A DNA stretch of 64,000 nt from Escherichia coli (lineage in GTDB: Bacteria > Pseudomonadota > Gammaproteobacteria > Enterobacterales > Enterobacteriaceae), in the NCBI RefSeq assembly GCF_003019035.1, contig NZ_CP027447.1; one strand, 5' to 3'. The notes under the pieces were generated by a model. The model worked only from the letters and a program-made list of their open reading frames with translations. It made no database searches and was not told the DNA's origin. Position numbers and translations under genes: made by a program. Positions 32,314 to 60,069 of the stretch are shown piece by piece. Within the stretch, counting starts at the first letter, position 1; the number at the start of each line of letters is the position of its first letter.

Positions 32314-32394
32314 TGGGTTTGAAAATGGGAGCTGCGAGTTCTACCGCAGGGGCGGGGAATTCTAAGTGATATCCATCATCGCATCCAGTGCGCC

Positions 32395-33094
32395 CGGTTT
32401 ATCCCCGCTGGCGCGGGGAACACTTGCAGTAGCACTTCAGTTCTGTTTTTGTCACCGGTTTATCCCCGCTGGCGCGGGGAACACGCCTGATAGCGCCTCC
32501 AGCCTTCGCCCTGGTGCGGTTTATCCCCGCTGGCGCGGGGAACACTGCATAGCTTTGGCTTCTTCTTTAACGGACGCCGGTTTATCCCCGCTGGCGCGGG
32601 GAACACAGTACCACTGTTTTTTCTTCGGTGCCCAGCCACGGTTTATCCCCGCTGGCGCGGGGAACACGTTTACATATTTATACCTACACGCTCAATCGAC
32701 GGTTTATCCCCGCTGGCGCGGGGAACACCCGTTTTCGATTGAACAGAAAGATTTCAACACCGGTTTATCCCCGCTGGCGCGGGGAACACAATACAGACCC
32801 GTTGTACGGTTTTTGCGAGCACGGTTTATCCCCGCTGGCGCGGGGAACACTTGGAAATCACCTCCCCGATCTCCGCGCTGTCCGGTTTATCCCCGCTGGC
32901 GCGGGGAACACCCCTCGGCAAAAATGCCTTTTTCCTCGTCGGTCGGTTTATCCCCGCTGGCGCGGGGAACACCACGGGCCAGACGGTAGCAACAATTTTA
33001 CGGCCGGTTTATCCCCGCTGGCGCGGGGAACACCAAAACGGAAGTGCCAGTATTGCCAGAATCACCGGTTTATCCCCGCTGGCGCGGGGAACAC
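32395..33094 (-). CRISPR. CRISPR array 1 (type I-E): 12 identical 29-bp repeats CGGTTTATCCCCGCTGGCGCGGGGAACAC (plus-strand reading), 11 spacers of 32 bp; leader at high-coordinate end
   Basis: Repeat starts at 32395, 32456, 32517, 32578, 32639, 32700, 32761, 32822, 32883, 32944, 33005, 33066; perfect 61-bp periodicity. Confidence 0.98.
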
Positions 33095-33190
33095 ACTAAG
33101 CATACGTATCTGTTTTTAAACAATTTTATTCCACATCAACAATCTACCAACTAAATTCAAACATTTCCTTATTTTTAAAGAACGGGTAAC
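33095..33190 (-). other. CRISPR leader of array 1 (AT-rich, contains CAATCTACCAACT motif shared with array 2 leader)
   Basis: AT-rich sequence between last repeat and cas2 stop; motif recurs downstream of array 2. Confidence 0.6.
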
Positions 33191-34400
<1,210 letters not shown>

Positions 34401-34404
<4 letters not shown>

Positions 34405-35051
34405 GCCTCTGCTCCAGGTTTGATCAGCATCAGACCACAACCGAACGCCCGGCTTTTGCCATACCCCTGACTGAGACGTTGCAGAAATAACCCAGGATCG
34501 GTGACCGTAAGCATCCCCGTATAATCCACGCTACTGAACTGGATCAGTTGCCGGGAGTTTTCCCGCCGCAGTTGCTGTTGTCGGTAGGCATCAACCGAAG
34601 TATCCAGCAGTGTAAAACCGCTTCTCTCCCCCTGCGCTGCCAGCCAGTCCAGCGCCGCCTGTTGTTGATGCAACCAGACATTTCTTCCTTCCGCCTGCCC
34701 CCTCACCTGCCGTTTCGCCTCCATCAGCAGATCGTGGCGCTTACCCGCTTTACAGACTGTTGGATTCGCCCGCAGGTTGAAACAAAGGGATTGTCCGGTA
34801 TGCAGTTCAGGCGCAAATGACCGGCATTCGATGGTGAACGTTTCACTTTCCGCCGGGCGTTCCTGCGACAGGACAAAAAAGCGAAACGCGCCCTGGAGTT
34901 CTTCCCGACGATAAAGAAATTGCCTTTCTTTGCCGCCAGGAAAAAGATCCCACAGCCACTGATGCATCACATATTCACCGCGATCCACCAAATGCAGCAA
35001 CTGCGCAGGCGAAAGCTGACCGGTATGTAAGGTTATTCTTGAGAGGTACAT
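34401..35051 (-). CDS. cas6e: Cas6e (CasE/Cse3) crRNA endoribonuclease
   Basis: ~216 aa starting MYLSRITL, C-terminal G-rich loop GYGKSRAFGCGLM; position in operon. Confidence 0.85.
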
Positions 35052-35779
35052 GGTTCCTCCTTGCTGAGCCACGGCCCCTGATTGACGGTGCGTTCCCCAA
35101 ACAGCCACTGCTGACGATTTAAAGGAACATCCCGGCGGCGTAATATTTTGCTCGAGACCAGGCCATCGTGCTCCCCTTCCCACCAGCATTCATCCTGAAG
35201 TTTCGGGAGTGAGACTTTCAGTTCGTGGAAACGATCCTGATACTGTTGGTATGCGTTACGTAAGGCATCAGACGCGTTACCTTCAAGCAGTAACGGCGCA
35301 AGGGGTAATGCCAGCGGATGGCTTTTTCGCCCCAGATAAAGCGGAAAAGCCGGATGGCGTAAACCTTCCTGCAACTGTTCGAGGCTGTAAGGCGCATCAG
35401 CTGTTGTTGCCACGGCCACCATCCACCAGGCATCGGTGTAGTAGTCGCGCCGGGAGATAATCGCGCTTAGAAGATCAGGGTCGCTCAACTCTTCGCGACG
35501 GCTGAAATAACGCGCTTTACGCACCTCTTTTGGCATCTGGACCGTGTGATAATCCCGTGCCCAGCGCGGGTTACGGCTGGCGCAAACCACCAGTGAATAG
35601 TGGCGATTAAACGCGTTTAAGCATTCGGTGTCATCACGCCGTATCCCTACCCCGGCAGCCAGCAGCCCCAGCAATGCTGAACGCGAAGGCAGTTCATGGG
35701 TATGACGCACCTCACCGGGTGCATCAACGCCCCAGGATGCCATTGGCCCATGAAGCTGAAAAATCAGATATTGGCTCAT
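35033..35779 (-). CDS. cas5: Cas5e (CasD) Cascade subunit
   Basis: 248-aa ORF with Cas5 N-terminal signature LHGPMASWG; operon position. Confidence 0.85.
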   Translation of the reverse strand: MSQYLIFQLHGPMASWGVDAPGEVRHTHELPSRSALLGLLAAGVGIRRDDTECLNAFNRHYSLVVCASRNPRWARDYHTVQMPKEVRKARYFSRREELSDPDLLSAIISRRDYYTDAWWMVAVATTADAPYSLEQLQEGLRHPAFPLYLGRKSHPLALPLAPLLLEGNASDALRNAYQQYQDRFHELKVSLPKLQDECWWEGEHDGLVSSKILRRRDVPLNRQQWLFGERTVNQGPWLSKEEPCTSQE

Positions 35780-35789
35780 AAGCCGCCCC

Positions 35790-36845
35790 TTACGCGCAGA
35801 TAAAGTCCAGCACGTCCTTCATGCTTCCCTGTTTGTTCATCACGTCAAAACTTGCGCATTCGGTCTTCTGTTCGTAAACCGTATTCATGTTTTCGCGAAG
35901 CGTTGTAATACGCTGCACCGCCACATCTAACTGACGTGTGCCATTAATGGGTTCATAGAAAGCCGCCGCCAGAGAACGCGGTTGTTCGGTGCCTTTTTCT
36001 GCCAGCGCCCAGGAGGCGTAGGCACGGCTGGCAAAGCTGTTTTGTTTACCGGTTGGGGAAACTTTAAACGCTGCTTCCGTAAAGGCGCGCAGGGTCTGAT
36101 TAGCTAATGCTTCGTCACCGCCGAGGTTTTCGACCAGCAGATCTTTATCAATGCAGATATAGGTGTAGAACAGCGCAGAACCAAATCCAGTTTCACCAAG
36201 ATGCCCTGCACCAGCATCTTCAGAGGCCTGGCGCAAATCATCAACGGCGGTGAAAAAATCATCTTCGACAATCGTTTCACTGACACCAAATGCATGCGCG
36301 ACCTGGCAGGCGGCTTCAACATTAAATTCGGGTTTATTCGCCAGCATACGACCAAACATAGCGATATCTACCGCCATGCGATCTTTACGTAACAAAGCGA
36401 GATCTTCCTCTTTTGGCGCGCGCTTTTCTTCGGCCAGTTGATGGGCCAGCGCTTTTACGGCGTCAAATTCTGCCGGGCTGATATGGACGAGCTGTTCAGT
36501 TTCGGCGTTAGTGAGCGGATCTTTTGGTTTTTTGTCGTTTTTAGCTTTCCCAAGATAATCCGCAATTTTTGCCGCCCATTCGATGGCTTTTTTCTCTTCG
36601 ATGCCTTTCTCAATCAGGATAGTTGCCGCCTCACGCGCAATACGCCCACTGCGAATACCAATATGGCCCGCCAGTGCCTGTTCAAAAAGTGCAGAAGTGC
36701 GCCACGCACGTTTCAGACTTTGCGAGGAAACGCGCAGACGCGTTGCTCCACCCAGCACCACGGTTTTCGGCGCACCGGTGTCATCACGGTTAAGGTTGGC
36801 TGCAGGGTAAGCGGTTAACAAATGAAGCTGAATAAATGTCGTCAT
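35790..36845 (-). CDS. cas7: Cas7e (CasC/Cse4) Cascade backbone subunit
   Basis: 351 aa, operon position between cse2 and cas5. Confidence 0.85.
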   Translation of the reverse strand: MTTFIQLHLLTAYPAANLNRDDTGAPKTVVLGGATRLRVSSQSLKRAWRTSALFEQALAGHIGIRSGRIAREAATILIEKGIEEKKAIEWAAKIADYLGKAKNDKKPKDPLTNAETEQLVHISPAEFDAVKALAHQLAEEKRAPKEEDLALLRKDRMAVDIAMFGRMLANKPEFNVEAACQVAHAFGVSETIVEDDFFTAVDDLRQASEDAGAGHLGETGFGSALFYTYICIDKDLLVENLGGDEALANQTLRAFTEAAFKVSPTGKQNSFASRAYASWALAEKGTEQPRSLAAAFYEPINGTRQLDVAVQRITTLRENMNTVYEQKTECASFDVMNKQGSMKDVLDFICA

Positions 36846-36859
36846 GAGATAGTCCTTTA

Positions 36860-37396
36860 TTAATTTTGTTCGTTATCGGCGTCGCCAGCCTGGTAATATT
36901 CCAGCGCCCAGCGGATACGGATAAATTCTGTTGGCCGCTGCTGACGGCGGTGATGGTTGAGCAGGTCGTCACTCTCCTGGCACCAGCGGAAAATATCGTC
37001 TGCCAAAGAGATAAGATTGACGGAACCGTTTAATAATTTGACCGCGCGACGTAACTGGCGCAGTAAATCATCCGGCGTTTTGACTGCCGACAGGCGAGTA
37101 AAACGCCCCTCAGACATTACCGCCGCCAACTGCGCGGCAAAAGGCTGCCGTTCATCAATGGCTTTTACATTGGCGGCAACGGCGGCAACCAGCGCCAGTG
37201 CGGTAAAACGCCACTCCTGTGATTCAATTTTCCACAACGTGTGGGTCTGCATCAGCAGAGAACGAAAACCTTCTGACAGACAAACATCATTAACCGTTGT
37301 GCTACGCCGCAGACTGGCACGATTGCCGCGTTTTTCCTGCAACTCTTCGAGCCATTTACGCAGCGTGGCTTTGTGCTCCTCTTTTACAATACTCAT
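36860..37396 (-). CDS. cse2: Cse2 (CasB) Cascade small subunit
   Basis: 178-aa helical ORF, operon position. Confidence 0.82.
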   Translation of the reverse strand: MSIVKEEHKATLRKWLEELQEKRGNRASLRRSTTVNDVCLSEGFRSLLMQTHTLWKIESQEWRFTALALVAAVAANVKAIDERQPFAAQLAAVMSEGRFTRLSAVKTPDDLLRQLRRAVKLLNGSVNLISLADDIFRWCQESDDLLNHHRRQQRPTEFIRIRWALEYYQAGDADNEQN

Positions 37397-38961
37397 TCAG
37401 CAGCCTCCTGCTTTTTCTCCCTGGCGGCTTTAGCACTTTGCTTCTCCGCCGATGTTGTAAAATATTTCTTGCGCGCGGTCATGACGCGTTTCAAATCAAC
37501 GGGCTCATAAGGATTGGTGAATACCCGCTCGTCAAAATCCTGACGCGCGAATAACCACATTTCCTTTTGCCATTTGCTGAGTAATTCATCCGGCTCCTGA
37601 CCTTCTTCAATTTGACGCACTAACCTCAGGAAGCGATGCTGAGTTTTGTTCCAAAAGTCGATATCCACAAAACTGAAATCACCCCGTGCACCTTTTGGAT
37701 CGGAGAACCATGCTTCTTTCAATGCACTCCGTAACAGACTTAGAATCCGTGAAGCCGTTTGCGCAGCCAGCCGCAGCTTTGGTATCTGGCCTTCTTTTTT
37801 ATTGAGCAGCAGCGGGAAATGGTGTTCGTACCAACAGCGCGCTTTCATGTTGTCAAAATCATAACCAAATCCCCATAGGCCCACTTTTGCCTGTTTCAGA
37901 CTGCTGGCATTAAAGAGTTTCACCACCAGCGCGGGAAGTTCCGTATTGTTTTCTGATTTACCCGTTTCGATAAGGCCTAACCAGTCGCGCCAGATTAAAC
38001 CGCCCGGTTGTGGTTTAACGGAGTAAAACTCGCCACCCTCTTTAAGTGGTACACGGTAAGGCGTTAAGGGATGCTGCCACATGGCATAATTGGCACCATA
38101 ATTTTTGGTCGTCATCAGGCTCAGGAGCGCGTCGTTCTGCTCGTCGCAAATATCGCAGTTGCCGACTGTCGTGGTATTAAAATCAATACGTATACGCCGC
38201 GGCATTCCCCAGTACGCCTGGAGTTTATTGACCTGATCATGGGTTACCACCGCACCGGCCAGTTCGCTGGTACGCGTCGGGCCTAGCCAGGGGAAAATCA
38301 GATCGTCAAATTTTTTGGGTAGCGGTAAGTCGGCTTCATCCTGCGGCATCACGTTGAGCCACAGTTTGCGCCACAAGGGTGTTTGTTGATTGCCCTGATA
38401 TTCCTGTAATTCAATGAGAGTCGTCATCGGCCCACCGCCGCGTAAACCGGTGCGATAGCCTTTGCCGCCCGCGGGTGCATTCAACTGTAAAGAGAACAAG
38501 GCCAATGCTAAGCAATGGGGGCACAGATATTCCGTTACACCCCGCTTGATAAAATGGTCTTTATTAAACTTCGTCGTTTGAAAGCCGGGAATCTCAGGCA
38601 GTAGCGAAGCGACCGGAACTTTATCTCCCGTGAGCGCCTCAAAATCCTGCATAAATGAAGATGAATCAGGCCCAAACTGGAAAGCATGTTCTAAAGACAG
38701 CAATGCTTCTCGTAGCTTTTCAGCTTCCAGTCCGTCTTCCCAGATATCATCCCAACGACGATGATCTTTTGGCGCGAAGCTGGTTTGTAGTAGTCCCAGC
38801 AAAAACTGCCAGGCCGCACCTTGTAAATCTGCTCGCGGTGCGGCGATATCGACAACATTCTCATCAGCCAGATCGACTGATGCCAGCTTGCCTGTCGTTC
38901 CGTCTTTGAAACGAACAGGCAACCACGGGGTTGTCAGAAGTGAAAACGAGTTCATACGCAT
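37393..38961 (-). CDS. cse1: Cse1 (CasA) Cascade large subunit
   Basis: 522 aa, operon position directly after cas3; called from size and position (not the K-12 sequence variant as recalled). Confidence 0.82.
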   Translation of the reverse strand: MRMNSFSLLTTPWLPVRFKDGTTGKLASVDLADENVVDIAAPRADLQGAAWQFLLGLLQTSFAPKDHRRWDDIWEDGLEAEKLREALLSLEHAFQFGPDSSSFMQDFEALTGDKVPVASLLPEIPGFQTTKFNKDHFIKRGVTEYLCPHCLALALFSLQLNAPAGGKGYRTGLRGGGPMTTLIELQEYQGNQQTPLWRKLWLNVMPQDEADLPLPKKFDDLIFPWLGPTRTSELAGAVVTHDQVNKLQAYWGMPRRIRIDFNTTTVGNCDICDEQNDALLSLMTTKNYGANYAMWQHPLTPYRVPLKEGGEFYSVKPQPGGLIWRDWLGLIETGKSENNTELPALVVKLFNASSLKQAKVGLWGFGYDFDNMKARCWYEHHFPLLLNKKEGQIPKLRLAAQTASRILSLLRSALKEAWFSDPKGARGDFSFVDIDFWNKTQHRFLRLVRQIEEGQEPDELLSKWQKEMWLFARQDFDERVFTNPYEPVDLKRVMTARKKYFTTSAEKQSAKAAREKKQEAAE

Positions 38962-39044
38962 CCTCTCGTAAAAAAGACCATCCCTGGTCGGTTGTCCATC
39001 CTTTTTTGTGTATCAACTATTCAGAGAATCCTGTCGCAGACATC

Positions 39045-41744
39045 TCAACCAACCTTGCCAATCAATCCCTCCGTAGCCGAATACCCACAACTTTCGTCAT
39101 CGGTGACTAAAATCACGTTTGCCATCTCCGGATCATGCCGCTGTTCAACGCACCACTGCCTGAACGCATCCCCTTCCAGTAAAGAAAACTCATCCCGATG
39201 TTTTTTCCACCAGCTTCGGCGCACTCTGACAACGCTCATTTCCCATGCGTGTGCACCTGTGGCATAAGGCTTCACCACACCGTCAATACAGGTAGCCAGC
39301 CACAGGGAAACAGACTCTTCAGCCAGACGTGTCGACAGTTTTTCCGGGAGGTAATCGTTGATATTGGCGGCATAGCCGGGCCTGAAGTTCAGTACAAACT
39401 TTTTAGCCATTGCGCGATCGCAGTAATATTTGCCCACTTGCTCCTGCTCGCTGCGGGCAAACCCTTCCGGCATTACTACGTCCTCACCGTAGACTGATTC
39501 AATCAGAAGCCGGGCTGAGTGTGGCATCTGAATAGCACCTTGCTCACGCAGCACACGCTGCGTCAGCCAGATTCGCCCATGATCGGGATAGACAAATGCA
39601 CTGTTACGCATGGCACTGCCAAACCATTCGTCACCCGGAGAGTCGTCCCAGACGGGGGCCAGAATCAGCAATTCAGGAGGGTGACGCTCGTCTTTACCGT
39701 CACGCTTTAACTGGCCATTCATATCGCGGATATGTCGCTGTAATCGCCCTGCTCGCTGGATCAGTAAATCAACAGGGGCAAAGTCGGAAATCATTTCGTC
39801 CAGGTCGCAGTCAACGCTCTGCTCCAGGACTTGAGTACAAATGAGGACTTTTCCGGCACGCTGTGAACAGTCTTCTTTACCAAAGCGTGCCAGCGTCTCC
39901 GTTTCAATTCGCTGGCGATCGCTAAAAGCAAAGCGGCTATGAAAAAGTGAAAGGCTGGAAGCAGGAATGACGCCGCGGGCAAGTAACTGACGATGAACCT
40001 GGATGGCGTCATCGACAGAATTTCGGATCCAGGCGATACATTTCCCCTGACTTACCGCCGATTCGATACGCGCAATACACTCTTGTTCGCTATGAAGCCA
40101 ACCCACACTCACGCTGCGCTCAACGTCTTTGCGCGTCGCTACCCGGTGTGAATGCACATCGGATTTCGTAACGTGCGTCAGCCAGGGGTAATCATCCTTT
40201 TCCAGGAACGGAGCTTCTTGCTGGCCCTCTATACCACGCGCAAAGGCAGCAACGAGTTTGTCGCGCTGCTGTTGAGATAACGTGGCAGAAAGCAAAATGA
40301 CGCTGTTTCCGCCACGCGCCTGCCGCTCGATCAGCCCTTCAAGAATGCATGACATGTAAGCGTCACAGGCATGGATCTCATCAGCCAGCAGGATTTTGTT
40401 ACTCAGTCCCAGAAGCCGCAGATTATTATGTTTGAACGGCATCACAGCCATCATCGCCTGATCCAGCGTGCCGACGCCAATTTCAGCCAGTAGCGCCTTC
40501 TTGTTACTGTCGGCAAACCAGGCCGCACATCCCTGACTGCACGTTTGTTCATCCGGTTCTTCTGACCCGACTAAATCACCGGACCAGAGTGATTCATTAA
40601 AGCGGTCCATTAATGTTCGGGCACTGTGTGCCAGCACCAGGCTGGGGCGGGACTCTGGCGAATAGAAAGCAAGCCAGGTTTTGACCAGTCGATCGTACAT
40701 GGCATTGGCCGTTGCCATTGTTGGCAGGCCAAAAAACAAACCCTGCGCTTTCCCCGCAGCCATCAACCTGTGCGCCAGGATAAGCGCCGCTTCTGTTTTA
40801 CCTGCGCCGGTTACATCCTCCAGAATAAATAACTGTGGTCCCGGCTGGCTGATATCCAGATCCAGCACCTTTTGCTGTAGCGGTGTCGGATTCTCAATAA
40901 AAGGAAACAGCGTATTAATTCCGGTGAAAGGCGCGCTTTCTGCTTTTGGAGGAAAGACGGTTAAGGCGTTTTGAGCCTGAACTAAAGTTTTCTGCCAGTA
41001 ATCTTCAATATCCATTGTCTGTGCGACGCGTGGAAAATATCGCGTTGACGATCCCGTCCAGTCTGCAAGTACGACGGTTGCAGAGATATACCAGGAAAGT
41101 TGTTTTATAAGTTCAACGCCCTCGTCATCATCCCAGAATGTGGGGATCTCTATGAGCGGAAACAGTACCTTGATTGCAAGGAGAAAATCTCGTGCGGCAC
41201 CTTTGTCTTCAGGCAGAAAATTATCCAGTTCATCCATACGCTCAGGGGGTCGACCATGATGCCCGGTAGTCATGGGCATCCACATCTCCATCACCCGTTT
41301 AAGTTTGCGCGGAGAGAGTGAAGATGAAGGAAGCAACTCCTGACATTCACTTAAATAATGGTTCCACAACCAGTAGCCCAGCGTTGAATGAGAGATCTTT
41401 TCGTAATTCTTTCTTGCGCCTTCCGGAACCTTGAGTTGTGGGTGCAGGTAAAGTTGCTGAAAAGAGCGGGCAAATTTTCCAATATCGTGCCAGCACAGCA
41501 GCCAGGCGAAAAATTGTGCTGCCAGCTCCGTGTCAGCGAAACCTAATTGACGAAAATAGTCAGCCAGTCCGAAGCAATTGCTTTTAACCATTAAATAGCC
41601 CATCGCGGCTACATCCAGCGAATGCCAGCAAAGAAGGTGATAGTCGTCACCACCCTCTTTCTCGCCGCGTCGGGTTTTTCCCCAGAAATCAAAAAAAGTC
41701 ACAATATTTTTATCCTTCAGTAAACTTAAAGGATATTTACGCAT
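39045..41744 (-). CDS. cas3: Cas3 HD nuclease/SF2 helicase (type I signature, 899 aa)
   Basis: N-terminal HD domain, DEAD-box helicase motifs (GAGKTE, DEIH). Confidence 0.92.
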   Translation of the reverse strand: MRKYPLSLLKDKNIVTFFDFWGKTRRGEKEGGDDYHLLCWHSLDVAAMGYLMVKSNCFGLADYFRQLGFADTELAAQFFAWLLCWHDIGKFARSFQQLYLHPQLKVPEGARKNYEKISHSTLGYWLWNHYLSECQELLPSSSLSPRKLKRVMEMWMPMTTGHHGRPPERMDELDNFLPEDKGAARDFLLAIKVLFPLIEIPTFWDDDEGVELIKQLSWYISATVVLADWTGSSTRYFPRVAQTMDIEDYWQKTLVQAQNALTVFPPKAESAPFTGINTLFPFIENPTPLQQKVLDLDISQPGPQLFILEDVTGAGKTEAALILAHRLMAAGKAQGLFFGLPTMATANAMYDRLVKTWLAFYSPESRPSLVLAHSARTLMDRFNESLWSGDLVGSEEPDEQTCSQGCAAWFADSNKKALLAEIGVGTLDQAMMAVMPFKHNNLRLLGLSNKILLADEIHACDAYMSCILEGLIERQARGGNSVILLSATLSQQQRDKLVAAFARGIEGQQEAPFLEKDDYPWLTHVTKSDVHSHRVATRKDVERSVSVGWLHSEQECIARIESAVSQGKCIAWIRNSVDDAIQVHRQLLARGVIPASSLSLFHSRFAFSDRQRIETETLARFGKEDCSQRAGKVLICTQVLEQSVDCDLDEMISDFAPVDLLIQRAGRLQRHIRDMNGQLKRDGKDERHPPELLILAPVWDDSPGDEWFGSAMRNSAFVYPDHGRIWLTQRVLREQGAIQMPHSARLLIESVYGEDVVMPEGFARSEQEQVGKYYCDRAMAKKFVLNFRPGYAANINDYLPEKLSTRLAEESVSLWLATCIDGVVKPYATGAHAWEMSVVRVRRSWWKKHRDEFSLLEGDAFRQWCVEQRHDPEMANVILVTDDESCGYSATEGLIGKVG

Positions 41745-41938: not shown

Positions 41939-42091
41939 CTACTTCTTCGATTCGTAAGCGAGAACCGCCTTAAACTCCATACCACGTTCTCTGATACTCA
42001 ACTCACACAACGAGTCGCCTACCATCAGCGTGAATCCCAGTACTGTAAAACACAGCACTATGATTGCCACAAGGGCATATTTTGTCAGCAT
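41939..42091 (-). CDS. hokX: Hok/Gef-family type I toxin (50 aa), likely hokX of the hokX-sokX locus
   Basis: Own translation [52 protein letters not shown] helix + conserved LCE...AYES Hok signature; GGAGG RBS; below 60-aa cutoff so absent from ORF track. Confidence 0.8.
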
Positions 42092-42355
42092 GTCTTGCCT
42101 CCCTGCAAAGAAGAGACTAACATTCGAATTGTTTGGGTTCGAACGCTGGCCTCAGGTTGATAGAAATATCGCCTGGGGCTTTTGTCCATCTGGAACCTCG
42201 CGAATGCTTAACGCCAGACAGCCTCAAGCACCCAACGCCATTCTATACCTGTTAATTCTTCCAACGACGTTCACGTTTAAAATCAGGAATGCTGCTCGCA
42301 AAATAAAAACGCCCCCATCATTTCTGACAGAGGCGTTTAATTTATCCGGCAATAT

Positions 42356-56670: not shown

Positions 56671-58149
56671 ATGTCGAAAAAATACATCATAGGGATTGAT
56701 GGCGGAAGTCAGAGCACAAAAGTGGTGATGTATGATCTGGAAGGTAATGTGGTTTGCGAAGGCAAAGGCTTATTGCAGCCGATGCACACGCCAGATGCCG
56801 ATACCGCAGAACATCCTGACGACGATTTATGGGCATCATTATGTTTTGCCGGTCACGATTTGATGAGTCAGTTTGCCGGAAATAAAGAAGATATTGTCGG
56901 CATTGGTCTGGGATCCATCCGTTGCTGCCGTGCGTTATTGAAAGCCGATGGCACACCAGCTGCGCCGTTGATTAGCTGGCAGGATGCACGCGTTACACGC
57001 CCTTACGAACATACGAATCCTGACGTGGCATATGTCACCTCTTTTTCGGGTTATCTGACGCATCGCTTAACCGGCGAGTTTAAAGACAATATCGCCAACT
57101 ATTTTGGTCAGTGGCCGGTGGATTATAAGACCTGGGCATGGAGCGAAGATACCGCGGTAATGGAGAAGTTTAATATTCCCCGACAGATGCTTTTTGATGT
57201 GCAAATGCCGGGCACTGTTCTTGGGCATATCACTCGTCAAGCCGCGCTGGCGACACATTTCCCGGCTGGGCTGCCGGTTGTTTGTACCACCAGTGATAAA
57301 CCGGTAGAAGCTCTGGGAGCCGGATTACTGGATGATGAAACGGCGGTGATTTCTCTTGGCACCTACATCGCGCTGATGATGAACGGTAAAGCACTGCCGA
57401 AAGATCCGGTAGCGTACTGGCCGATTATGTCTTCTATTCCGCAAACCTTGCTGTATGAAGGTTACGGTATCCGCAAAGGCATGTGGACGGTGAGCTGGCT
57501 ACGCGACATGCTAGGCGAGTCGTTAATTCAGGATGCCAAAGCACAGGATCTTTCACCGGAAGATTTGCTCAACAAAAAAGCGTCTTGTGTGCCGCCTGGC
57601 TGTAATGGTCTGATGACGGTGCTGGACTGGCTGACCAATCCGTGGGAACCATACAAACGCGGGATTATGATCGGCTTTGATTCCAGCATGGATTACGCAT
57701 GGATATATCGTTCGATACTGGAAAGCGTGGCGCTGACGCTGAAGAACAATTACGACAATATGTGTAATGAAATGAATCACTTTGCAAAGCATGTGATCAT
57801 TACTGGCGGCGGTTCGAACAGCGATCTGTTTATGCAGATTTTTGCCGACGTGTTCAACCTTCCGGCACGCCGTAACGCCATTAATGGTTGTGCAAGTCTG
57901 GGGGCAGCGATCAATACGGCGGTAGGTCTGGGGCTATACCCGGATTACGCAACGGCTGTCGACAAAATGGTTCGCGTGAAAGATATCTTTATGCCTGTTG
58001 AGAGCAACGCCAAACGCTACGACGCGATGAATAAAGGCATTTTCAAAGACCTAACCAAACACACTGATGTGATCCTGAAAAAATCGTATGAAGTGATGCA
58101 TGGTGAGCTGGGGAATGAAGATTCGATCCAGAGCTGGTCGAATGCGTAA
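56671..58149 (+). CDS. ygcE: FGGY-family carbohydrate kinase (492 aa)
   Basis: FGGY kinase N-terminal motif IGIDGGSQSTK, 492 aa. Confidence 0.9.
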   Translation: MSKKYIIGIDGGSQSTKVVMYDLEGNVVCEGKGLLQPMHTPDADTAEHPDDDLWASLCFAGHDLMSQFAGNKEDIVGIGLGSIRCCRALLKADGTPAAPLISWQDARVTRPYEHTNPDVAYVTSFSGYLTHRLTGEFKDNIANYFGQWPVDYKTWAWSEDTAVMEKFNIPRQMLFDVQMPGTVLGHITRQAALATHFPAGLPVVCTTSDKPVEALGAGLLDDETAVISLGTYIALMMNGKALPKDPVAYWPIMSSIPQTLLYEGYGIRKGMWTVSWLRDMLGESLIQDAKAQDLSPEDLLNKKASCVPPGCNGLMTVLDWLTNPWEPYKRGIMIGFDSSMDYAWIYRSILESVALTLKNNYDNMCNEMNHFAKHVIITGGGSNSDLFMQIFADVFNLPARRNAINGCASLGAAINTAVGLGLYPDYATAVDKMVRVKDIFMPVESNAKRYDAMNKGIFKDLTKHTDVILKKSYEVMHGELGNEDSIQSWSNA

Positions 58150-58196
58150 GTGAGGAAGACCGGGCGGGAAACTGCCCGGCCTGAACATACCTGAAT

Positions 58197-58334
58197 GGTT
58201 ATCCCCGCTGACGCGGGGAACATAAGTTCGACAACTTAAAAAATGATAACAAGTCCGGTTTATCCCCGCTGATGCAGGGAACATAATAAAAACTTTAACT
58301 AGTTCGGTTTATCCCTGTTTTTACAAGGAATATT
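58197..58334 (-). CRISPR. Degenerate CRISPR remnant: three decayed repeats (…GGGGAACAT, …GCAGGGAACAT, …CAAGGAATAT) with one 32-bp and one 20-bp spacer
   Basis: Repeat-like units at 58197-58224, 58257-58285, 58306-58334 with accumulating mismatches. Confidence 0.7.
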
Positions 58335-58786
58335 AACTACACTCGATGTCTTTAGAATAAAAGACAATACGAATCGCACTTTATCAATTTTCACTTAAAG
58401 TATGAACTGGATATCTTTATTCATAAGAACTATTCATCAACAGCCTATAGAGGCGGTTATGTAAAACCACTCATTAGCCTCAAAACAAAGACAAATTTCC
58501 AGATTTATTACTTAATCAATGAATAACAAGCTTAAAAAATACACTGTTATTCTAAAGAAAAAATTAACAGGCATTAATTAATATTAAAAAAATAATAGAT
58601 TAAAATTTCTTAACGGTTTAAGGATTATACAAATAACACTTTGATTAAATTTGATTTTTTGTATCGATAATTGTGAACTTATCTGGCATGGAGAACTATT
58701 TTGAACATGAGGTGTTATGTGGATATGTTGCTTATTACAAGTACAGCTAATATAAAAACTTGAGAAAGAGATAACGGGTTATATGG

Positions 58787-59059
58787 TGGTTTATCCCCGC
58801 TGGTGCGGGGAACTCTTGGCATAGGCGCTATAGCGGCGCTCTGTGTCCGGTTTATCCCCGCTGGCACGGGGAACTCGTTGGTGCCGTTGTTGTAACCGTA
58901 GAAACCGACGGTTTATCCCCGCTGACGTGGGGAACTCGCAGGTCAACACGGGCGATAAACCCGGCTGACCGGTTTATCCCCGCTGACGTGGGGAACTCGA
59001 TAAGCAGATTGCAGAACTACAGGCGAAGGACGGTTTATCCCCGCTGACGTGGGGAACTC
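58787..59059 (-). CRISPR. CRISPR array 2 (type I-E repeats, 5 repeats / 4 spacers of 32 bp); repeat variants ending AACTC; leader at high-coordinate end
   Basis: Repeats at 58787, 58848, 58909, 58970, 59031; R1 TGG…GCTGGTGCGGGG, R2 …GCTGGCACGGGG, R3-R5 …GCTGACGTGGGG. Confidence 0.93.
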
Positions 59060-59250
59060 TCTAAACATAACCTATTATTAATTAATGATTTTTTAAGCCA
59101 GTCACAATCTACCAACTTTACAGGATCACACAAACAACACATCCATTATGTTAAAGAACACTTAATCCATTGATTAAAAAAGTAAATATTTAAAATAACT
59201 CTATACCCACTAAAATCTACCAAACTTTACCGCAATAATTTTCACTCCAA
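59060..59250 (-). other. Putative leader of CRISPR array 2 (AT-rich, shares CAATCTACCAACT motif with array 1 leader)
   Basis: Motif at the same distance (~60 nt) from the last repeat in both arrays. Confidence 0.5.
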
Positions 59251-59397
59251 CGAAAAATTAACGCCACAGAATTTGTAGAGAATGATAATGATTAGCCCAG
59301 AATGGGCAAAATGGAGTTTTTTCAGAGGCGACAAAGAATATAAATAAGTGGAAGTCTTTACAGGTTCCACCCATTTATAACGCTTATAAATGTTTAA

Positions 59398-60069
59398 TCA
59401 GGCAATATTCAAATATTTATGTGTCTGCATCGACAAACGCCAGTTGCGCGCTATGCAGGTATCGATACATAAACGCGTAGCATCTTCCTTCTGGCTAATT
59501 GGCTGAAGTGCAATGACTCGCGGTTTATCATCGGTCAGCGTCGCAAGCAATTCATCCAGTGCTTCGATATCACGTACGCGTCCCACTGGATGCTTGATTT
59601 CGTTGGCTCGCTCCAGTGCCTGTGACAACACTTCATAGCCGCCGCGCATATTCAGCTTTGGCGATACGGTAACCCAGGTATTCGGTGTGCAGCGTACTTC
59701 ATGAGTACCACTGGTTTCGATCTGGCAGCTAAAACCGTTCTTTTCGAGCTGGTCAGTCAGTGGCAGCAAATCATGAATGCAAGGCTCACCACCCGTAATC
59801 ACCACATGCCGTGCGGTGTATCCCTGGCGACCAATGACAGCCAGCAAATCTTCACTGCTCGCAGCCCCCCACTTATCACTCTCTTTGGTCTTCGCCAGAA
59901 TGCTGAAAAGGGAAACTTCCCGATCCTCAAGCTTTTCCCAGGTGTGTTTGGTGTCGCACCAGGCACAGCCAACCGGGCATCCCTGTAAACGAATAAAAAT
60001 GGCGGGGACGCCGGTAAAGTAACCCTCACCTTGCAGGGTCTGGAACATCTCGTTAATCGGGTACTGCAT
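59398..60069 (-). CDS. queE: 7-carboxy-7-deazaguanine synthase QueE (radical SAM, 223 aa)
   Basis: Starts MQYPINEMFQTLQGEG, radical SAM Cys motif CPVGCAWCDT. Confidence 0.95.
   Translation of the reverse strand: MQYPINEMFQTLQGEGYFTGVPAIFIRLQGCPVGCAWCDTKHTWEKLEDREVSLFSILAKTKESDKWGAASSEDLLAVIGRQGYTARHVVITGGEPCIHDLLPLTDQLEKNGFSCQIETSGTHEVRCTPNTWVTVSPKLNMRGGYEVLSQALERANEIKHPVGRVRDIEALDELLATLTDDKPRVIALQPISQKEDATRLCIDTCIARNWRLSMQTHKYLNIA

Follow-up and report, generated by a model that had tools for sequence, protein, structure and literature searches.

A window of Escherichia coli DNA, by which we mean the whole stretch of 64,000 nucleotides that was analysed, carries two CRISPR arrays. In the second of them, the three repeats next to the leader are identical to each other and differ from the canonical repeat by two bases, one of which lies in the stem of the hairpin that Cas6e acts on. 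This raises the question of how the same variant came to occupy three successive repeats, by acquisition of spacers after the mutation arose or by homogenisation, and of whether the RNA of such an array is still processed by the Cas6e encoded in the same window.

Two arrays and one type I-E cas operon

Arrays 1 and 2 are the classical CRISPR2.1 (CRISPR-I) and CRISPR2.3 (CRISPR-II), respectively. Array 1 is flanked by iap and a complete type I-E operon. The features of this region are as follows, with the coordinates of the cas genes obtained by combining the ends of open reading frames with annotated gene lengths.

32334..33094, minus strand: CRISPR2.1 (CRISPR-I) array of 12 spacers, its 12 CRISPR-A repeats identical, its terminal repeat degenerate
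33095..33190, minus strand: leader 2.1 (type A), with CAATCTACCAACT at 33140-33152
33191..41744, minus strand: type I-E cas operon of the cas-E1/'cas-EO' variant, complete, no pseudogene flags
33191-33484, minus strand: cas2
33481-34404, minus strand: cas1
34401-35051, minus strand: cas6e, the single Cas6e gene, product of 216 aa
35033-35779, minus strand: cas5
35790-36845, minus strand: cas7
36860-37396, minus strand: cse2
37393-38955, minus strand: cse1
39045-41744, minus strand: cas3

The 12 identical repeats of array 1 (CGGTTTATCCCCGCTGGCGCGGGGAACAC) occupy 32395-33094 with a spacing of 61 bp, and all of them end in AACAC. Their number and identity had been given correctly in the earlier note, which left uncounted the degenerate terminal repeat at 32334-32362. 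The window encodes one Cas6e, as had also been stated there, and the protein shares 27% identity with K-12 CasE.

Array 2 and its surroundings comprise the following features.

58195-58223 (...TGACGCG...), 58256-58284 and 58305-58333, minus strand: degenerate repeats of the CRISPR2.2 remnant, which is also present in K-12
58787..59059, minus strand: CRISPR2.3 (CRISPR-II) array, the identical span being annotated as CRISPR by RefSeq
58787..58815, minus strand: R1, the terminal (oldest) repeat, TGGTTTATCCCCGCTGGTGCGGGGAACTC, T-initial
58848..58876, minus strand: R2, ...GCTGGCACGGGG..., with a U11·G16 wobble as the loop-closing pair of the crRNA hairpin
58909..59059, minus strand: R3-R5 block, identical ...GCTGACGTGGGG..., with spacers S3 and S4
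59060..59130, minus strand: leader 2.3, the repeat-proximal part of about 70 bp, AT-rich, with CAATCTACCAACT at 59105-59117

The neighbours of array 2 are ygcE and queE (ygcF) in the RefSeq annotation of the matching record, and the window as a whole is nearly identical to E. coli SCU-301, with a match of 100% over positions 57800-59900. Elsewhere, between cas3 and casA, the window and the SCU-301 record differ by an 8-bp indel. The CRISPR2.2 remnant sits about 0.5 kb from CRISPR2.3. The array consists of five repeats of 29 bp, starting at 58787, 58848, 58909, 58970, and 59031, and four spacers of 32 bp, with an exact period of 61 bp. A degenerate pattern spanning all repeat forms gave 17 matches in the window and none in 100 shuffles. 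An Rfam scan of 30000-64000 matched sok alone and no CRISPR repeat family. The AT-rich leader on the right, the T-initial degenerate repeat on the left, and the agreement with K-12 place the crRNA of array 2 on the minus strand. With this orientation, R3-R5 are the newest, leader-proximal repeats, the leader starting at 59060 and the degenerate terminal repeat lying at the opposite end.

Three different centre variants are found among the five repeats. In the crRNA sense, R1 has a loop change from GCCA to ACCA and a terminal A; this terminal-repeat allele recurs in other strains among the arrays that we parsed. R2 (...GGCACGG...) does not represent a step from the canonical to the variant repeat. 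R3-R5 read GAGUUCCCCACGUCAGCGGGGAUAAACCG in the crRNA sense, where the canonical repeat reads GAGUUCCCCGCGCCAGCGGGGAUAAACCG; the changes are G10A in the stem and C13U in the loop, corresponding to GCGC to ACGT on the plus strand. All five repeats end in AACTC and not in AACAC. The earlier note had described these forms, their endings and the leader-proximal position of the identical ones from the letters of the window, and every one of its sequence statements on them was reproduced.

It had also reported that the two leaders share CAATCTACCAACT at an equal distance, which holds: the motif occupies leader positions -46 to -58 in both, 45 nt off the repeat, and the K-12 CRISPR I leader has CAACCCACCAACC at the equivalent positions. 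A conserved leader block at -44 to -59 has been described, in which the CBS2 element (-46 to -57) contains the IAS (-50 to -53), the integrase anchoring site for Cas1-Cas2 that is needed for spacer integration (PMC5224486). Judged by position, CAATCTACCAACT coincides with this published CBS2/IAS leader element. For the IHF site, expected at -9 to -35, WATCAANNNNTTR was absent from both leaders at up to one mismatch, IHF sites being degenerate. A scan for consensus promoters near array 2 yielded 5 sites against 4.2 expected, none convincingly placed, and the promoter and terminator scan around the array as a whole stayed at chance level. Array 2 is a satellite of the type I-E system encoded beside array 1.

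Distribution and copying of the variant repeat

Among 5,426 complete E. coli genomes, 118 contain the exact 29-mer of R3-R5, in 415 copies that are all chromosomal, with a median of 4 per genome. The earlier note had called for a comparison of these repeats across strains and had supposed something less ordinary; the variant is shared, and it amounts to an ordinary inherited polymorphism present in about 2% of sequenced E. coli. An 85-nt query made of the variant repeat and the leader was matched exactly in 101 genomes, so that the variant is leader-proximal there, and 4,087 of the 5,426 genomes match the 85-nt repeat-plus-leader query, that is, carry leader 2.3. An exact-pattern scan of 100,044 species-representative genomes gave no occurrence of the 29-mer, and a full-text literature search for the variant sequence in either orientation returned no paper. 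Related alleles were counted as well. The loop-only allele (...TGACGCG...AACTC) occurs in 231 genomes with 972 copies, the stem-only allele (...TGGCGTG...) in 3 genomes as single copies, and the double variant on an AACAC repeat in 4 genomes, again as single copies. The variant probably arose from the commoner loop-only allele by one further transition. The simplest history would lead from the canonical repeat to the loop-only form, which is common and energetically neutral, and from there by one more transition to the variant.

To follow the allele through individual arrays, CRISPR2.3 was read and parsed from 18 other E. coli genomes. Variant blocks of 1 to 11 repeats abut the leader in these genomes, and the older spacers beneath them, with canonical repeats, belong to at least four different sets. 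Seventeen distinct spacers are flanked by the variant on both sides, and every unit measures exactly 61 bp. In one array (L003), a second mutation (G to A at plus-strand position 2) is confined to the five newest variant repeats, which is the nested pattern that serial copying would be expected to produce. Two Korean isolates capture what may be a single step: the array of L012 ends with a single variant repeat, and that of L010 has one extra spacer and a second variant repeat. The extra spacer matches phage P1 at lox over 32 of 32 positions with an ATG PAM. The comparison of two further related strains (L009 and L004) likewise fits the addition of variant-flanked units. Two spacers of the L004 lineage, one old and one flanked by the variant, match a single E. 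coli phage on one strand at sites separated by 1.17 kb; each match has 3 mismatches, and the PAMs are AAG and ATG. This pair resembles priming, although two spacers are no proof of it. These two spacers and the P1 spacer of L010 were the only matches of the phage search (E<=0.5), in which the window's own 15 spacers had none. In the plasmid search, all 40 among the matches listed (of 656 more) were to the P1-lox spacer, and no protospacer was present in the first 50 kb of the 226-kb P1-like plasmid resident in strain MFDS1019527.

These observations fit a simple mode of propagation. At the leader-repeat junction, Cas1-Cas2 inserts the new spacer and copies the leader-proximal repeat in doing so. 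With the allele beside the leader, each further unit inherits it, and the three identical repeats R3-R5 imply two acquisitions (S3 and S4) made after the allele became leader-proximal. The copying step is shown by the comparison of genomes. It bears out the first of the two explanations that the earlier note had offered, acquisition after the mutation arose: arrays whose spacers are unrelated have the allele at their head, one variant-flanked unit separates sister strains, the blocks vary in length, and a second mutation is nested within one of them.

The allele also occurs away from the leader. In L013 and L017 it occupies the second-oldest position, beneath newer repeats of canonical sequence; in L015 this position holds the variant on an AACAC repeat, and a repeat of the CRISPR2.2 remnant of this strain reads ACGT, too. 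The terminal repeat of L003 carries the variant as well. Old internal and terminal copies of this kind call for recombination between repeats, exchange between arrays, or recurrent mutation, since leader-end copying from one origin alone could not yield them. Recombination of E. coli CRISPR arrays is documented (PMC3903273), and L026 corresponds to L013 minus one repeat-spacer unit. We infer that the allele would reach other positions and lineages through recombination, both among repeats and between the arrays of different strains. Taking both steps together, the array 2 variant is very probably a heritable repeat allele that is copied at each acquisition and is later moved by recombination.

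Other accounts of the identical block have to be weighed against this one. The second explanation in the earlier note was homogenisation, in which gene conversion or unequal recombination, and not acquisition after the mutation, would have made R3-R5 identical. Such processes do appear to contribute, as seen from old internal or terminal repeats that carry the allele in L013, L015, L017, and L003, from ACGT even in the CRISPR2.2 remnant repeat of L015, from the missing unit of L026, which points to repeat-repeat recombination, and from the documented array recombination (PMC3903273). As the origin of the block itself, however, homogenisation is most improbable. Contiguous variant blocks abut the leader in 101 of the 118 genomes, the spacers within them are all different and 32 bp each, the nested mutation of L003 and the one-unit step from L012 to L010 fit sequential copying, and gene conversion would hardly halt exactly at the older repeats in each lineage.

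A further possibility is that the double change arose several times independently, at a hotspot or by palindrome-templated mutation (GCGC to ACGT), and not once followed by recombination. The altered bases sit symmetrically in a palindrome of 4 nt, repeats of both the AACTC and the AACAC type show the change, as does one repeat of a CRISPR2.2 remnant, and it is associated with two leader haplotypes, which have G or T at about -64. We nevertheless regard recurrence as unlikely, because one extra transition suffices given a loop-only allele in 231 genomes, the AACAC versions are rare single copies (4 genomes), a palindrome of 4 nt is below the length for known template-switch mechanisms, and recombination is documented for this locus (PMC3903273). 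That the variant is a sequencing or assembly artefact is next to inconceivable, given that 118 complete assemblies, each independent, contain the identical 29-mer and that the window has it three times.

The copying of a changed repeat bears on the sequence requirements of integration. The inverted repeats IR1 (CCCCGCG) and IR2 (GCGGG) anchor two molecular rulers, and multi-base mutations in them lower adaptation about 100-fold (Goren et al., PMC5039180). The variant alters one base of the 7-nt IR1, at position 5 (CCCCGCG to CCCCACG). Natural arrays with this change keep 29-bp repeats and 32-bp spacers, which shows that accurate integration tolerates a single IR1 substitution. The allele occurs in three cas backgrounds: with a cas-E1/cas-EO operon in the window and in MDR_56, whose cas3 is frameshifted; with a K-12-type operon in MFDS1019527; and with a cas deletion in 2020CK-00188. 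The variant allele is a competent integration template with both cas variants. Since the cas genes of some carriers are damaged, the persistence of the allele may reflect relaxed selection and not tolerance.

The variant hairpin as a probable Cas6e substrate

The repeat RNA of type I-E systems forms a stem of 7 bp with a loop of 4 nt, and Cas6e cuts after G21. In the crRNA hairpin of R3-R5, A10 faces C17 as a mismatch in place of the fifth pair, counted from the stem base; a single pair separates this mismatch from the loop, which changes from GCCA to GUCA (C13U). The two changes leave untouched the U5-A22 pair, the four C-G pairs beside the cleavage site, and the 5' handle of 8 nt. The predicted folding energies are -15.1 kcal/mol for the canonical repeat, -14.3 for R1, -12.8 for R2, and -9.7 for R3-R5, so that the mismatch is predicted to cost 5.4 kcal/mol relative to the canonical repeat. 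The stem-loop architecture is common to all four predicted folds, the mismatch of R3-R5 appearing as a 1x1 internal loop. The earlier note had termed the variant stem-disrupting. The A·C mismatch is real, but the predicted fold has the hairpin weakened and not abolished; as the stem-loop is kept in R3-R5, 'stem-weakening' is the better term. We also considered C13U as a thermodynamic compensation of the stem mismatch and rejected it: in the nearest-neighbour model the loop change alone has no energy cost, and -9.7 kcal/mol results equally for the stem change by itself and for the double variant.

Cas6e would read mainly the base of the stem, a view that draws on the PERSIST result. K-12 CasE 'strongly cleaves' the Thermus thermophilus repeat hairpin GUAGUCCCCACGCGUGUGGGGAU (PMC9095627, text and supplement), and U5A at the stem base abolishes CasE cleavage (PMC9095627). 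The T. thermophilus hairpin differs in its loop and has at position 10 an A that pairs with U. Its cleavage implies that K-12 CasE reads neither the identity of pair 5 nor the loop. The case shows tolerance of base identity, and not of a mismatch. Cascade can be loaded and can bind its target in vitro when most of the 3' handle is missing (PMC4288178). Two points count against carrying these results over: the Cas6e of the window is only 27% identical to K-12 CasE, and a sequence search and the literature consulted gave Cas6e structures and cleavage data for the K-12 and T. thermophilus enzymes only, and none for the Cas6e of the window. Taken with the predicted fold, the indirect evidence favours cleavage, and Cas6e would probably still cut the variant hairpin, perhaps less efficiently.

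The opposite case is that the variant repeats are cleaved poorly or not at all, leaving S2-S4 without mature crRNA and array 2 as a recording-only array. Cas1-Cas2 would then add units without immunity, and an H-NS-silenced type I-E system under weak selection would keep the allele. This is possible, and we lean against it. It would be in keeping with the predicted cost of the mismatch, with the spread of a 5'-handle mutation (AUAAACCG to AUAAACUG) through five units of L003, a strain that has since lost its cas operon, with the frameshifted cas3 of MDR_56, and with CRISPR2 repeats being exactly consensus in only 75% (Touchon & Rocha 2010, PMC2886076). Against this, the variant leaves the lower five pairs, the cleavage site, and the 5' handle as they are, the hairpin is kept in the predicted minimum-free-energy fold, K-12 CasE tolerates an A at position 10 and a different loop, and the cas operon of the window is annotated as intact. 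Moreover, the allele has expanded to many units in several lineages, which the stem-only allele never did.

A more specific form of this idea, which we hold to be doubtful, is that the variant is a natural hypomorph, copied by Cas1-Cas2 of both type I-E variants and poorly processed by Cas6e. If this were true, CRISPR2.3 in about 2% of E. coli would be a memory that is written and hardly read, and adaptation would be naturally uncoupled from crRNA biogenesis. In one version of it, C13U would rescue recognition, explaining why the stem-only allele never spread. Continued cleavage of a weakened hairpin remains our preferred reading. The canonical, loop-only, stem-only, and double-variant repeats constitute a natural series for the tolerance of Cas6e towards hairpin imperfection, and the allele is found with either of the two E. 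coli Cas6e proteins, which are far apart in sequence at 27% identity.

Comparison with known systems

The phenomenon as such had been described before. For Escherichia and Salmonella arrays, Touchon & Rocha (2010) noted 'stretches of conserved repeat variants' and inferred copying of the adjacent repeat (PMC2886076, Table S6), so that runs of identical variants with the same explanation have been in print since 2010. What is new here is the frequency of a stem-mismatch allele (about 2%), its competence as a template, and its probable origin from the loop-only allele, which together make a modest addition. Tolerance of a single IR1 substitution in natural arrays complements the multi-base mutants made in the laboratory, and the allele could serve as a lineage or recombination marker in E. 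coli CRISPR typing. The established type I-E model is unaltered by the variant repeat. The run in S. Schwarzengrund listed in Table S6 (PMC2886076) involves the loop change TGACGCG and an AATAC change, and neither breaks a stem pair. Unlike that example, the run in array 2 has an A·C stem mismatch and has been quantified here over 5,426 genomes.

K-12 CRISPR II (CRISPR2.3), between ygcE and ygcF/queE, is the closest counterpart of array 2. The two have in common the locus, leader 2.3 including CAATCTACCAACT, the CRISPR2.2 remnant, the 29/32-bp architecture, and a T-initial terminal repeat. They differ in that K-12 CRISPR II has CRISPR-A repeats (...AACAC) with a canonical centre and different spacers, whereas array 2 has CRISPR-T repeats (...AACTC). 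The endings AACAC and AACTC are the published CRISPR-A/CRISPR-T dimorphism (Díez-Villaseñor 2013, PMC3737337). In the window, all repeats of array 1 end in AACAC and all of array 2 in AACTC; in K-12 the two types are exchanged, CRISPR2.1 having the T form and CRISPR2.3 the A form. Regarding the cas-EO and cas-EK (E1/E2) variants (PMC3737337, PMC3903273), the operon of the window is cas-EO/E1, with CRISPR-A repeats in array 1 and a type-A-like leader, and a Cas6e of 216 aa with 27% identity to K-12 CasE agrees with what is expected of this variant. Leader 2.3 is alike in both E. coli cas backgrounds (cas-EO and cas-EK). The ACGT centre variant goes unmentioned in Díez-Villaseñor 2013 (PMC3737337) and Almendros 2014 (PMC3903273).

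Outside E. coli, the type I-E hairpin of T. thermophilus, the substrate of Cse3/TtCas6e, has a 5' stem half (UCCCCACG) identical to that of the variant, A10 included. There A10 pairs with U17, whereas in the E. coli variant it faces C17 as a mismatch. Within K-12 itself, old repeats of CRISPR I contain natural stem and loop changes (...CCCTGC..., ...GCTAACG..., ...TGATGCG...). These degenerate repeats are single, leader-distal, and unpropagated; in contrast, the variant of array 2 is leader-proximal and, judged by the arrays compared here, is being copied.

Form of the variant repeat and decay of old repeats

Window 58925-58928 and equivalents, plus strand: centre of the variant repeat, GCGC->ACGT
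L018 (K-12 CRISPR I) 702-852: its three oldest regular repeats

The double change (G10A and C13U in crRNA sense) is a symmetric pair of transitions: read on the plus strand, the palindromic GCGC becomes ACGT, again a palindrome. The one-step form ACGC was found in a CRISPR2.2 remnant repeat (window 58195-58223), and this form is given as 'consensus' in PMC3737337. In K-12 CRISPR I, all three of the oldest regular repeats have substitutions in the stem or loop, and these differ from one repeat to the next (...TGATGCG...AACAC, ...CCCTGC... and ...GCTAACG...), so old repeats of this family usually decay.

Spacers and variant repeats in other CRISPR2.3 arrays

L004 1408-1439 and 1652-1683: phage-matching spacers (protospacers at L019 301-332 and 1474-1505)
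L003 1135-1956: array of E. coli 2020CK-00188, 11 variant repeats
L010 1469-1500: newest spacer of MFDS1019527 (compared with sister strain L012; protospacer at L020 301-332)

Two spacers of the L004 array, one old and one with a variant repeat at both sides, match sites in Escherichia phage vB_EcoM-569R10, within its tail-gene region. Their protospacers lie on the same strand with 1.17 kb between them, an arrangement reminiscent of primed adaptation. In strain 2020CK-00188, the five newest of the 11 variant repeats share an additional substitution, by which the crRNA 5' handle becomes AUAAACUG instead of AUAAACCG, and one spacer is duplicated in tandem. This strain has lost cas2 through casA, retaining only a cas3 fragment. 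The newest spacer of MFDS1019527 matches phage P1 at 32/32 positions; the protospacer overlaps loxP, has the PAM ATG (CAT), and occurs on ~700 P1-like plasmids in the plasmid search, where 40/40 among the matches listed corresponded to the P1-lox spacer. The cas operon of MFDS1019527 is K-12-type, and in published assays CAT motifs were not sampled by the K-12-type operon.

The cas operon of the window and its Cas6e

Window 42076-42233, minus strand: sok RNA (RF01794), 111 bits
Window ~41939-42091: hok ORF, annotated as a Hok/Gef family CDS
Window 38956-39044: cas3-casA intergenic region, site of difference from the SCU-301 RefSeq record
Window 34401-35051, minus strand: Cas6e gene, product of 216 aa

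A hok/sok toxin-antitoxin locus is flanked by cysH and cas3, with the cas operon directly downstream. The array-2 region is 100% identical to the SCU-301 RefSeq record; between cas3 and casA, upstream of the latter, the window has one copy of the 8-bp tandem unit AAGGATGG and that record has two.

The Cas6e of the window is a cas-E1/cas-EO variant, for which little biochemistry was found in the literature. Its top match in a PDB search was K-12 CasE (E ~1e-10). Although the window protein shares only 27% identity with K-12 CasE (199 aa), the same repeat is the substrate for both enzymes.
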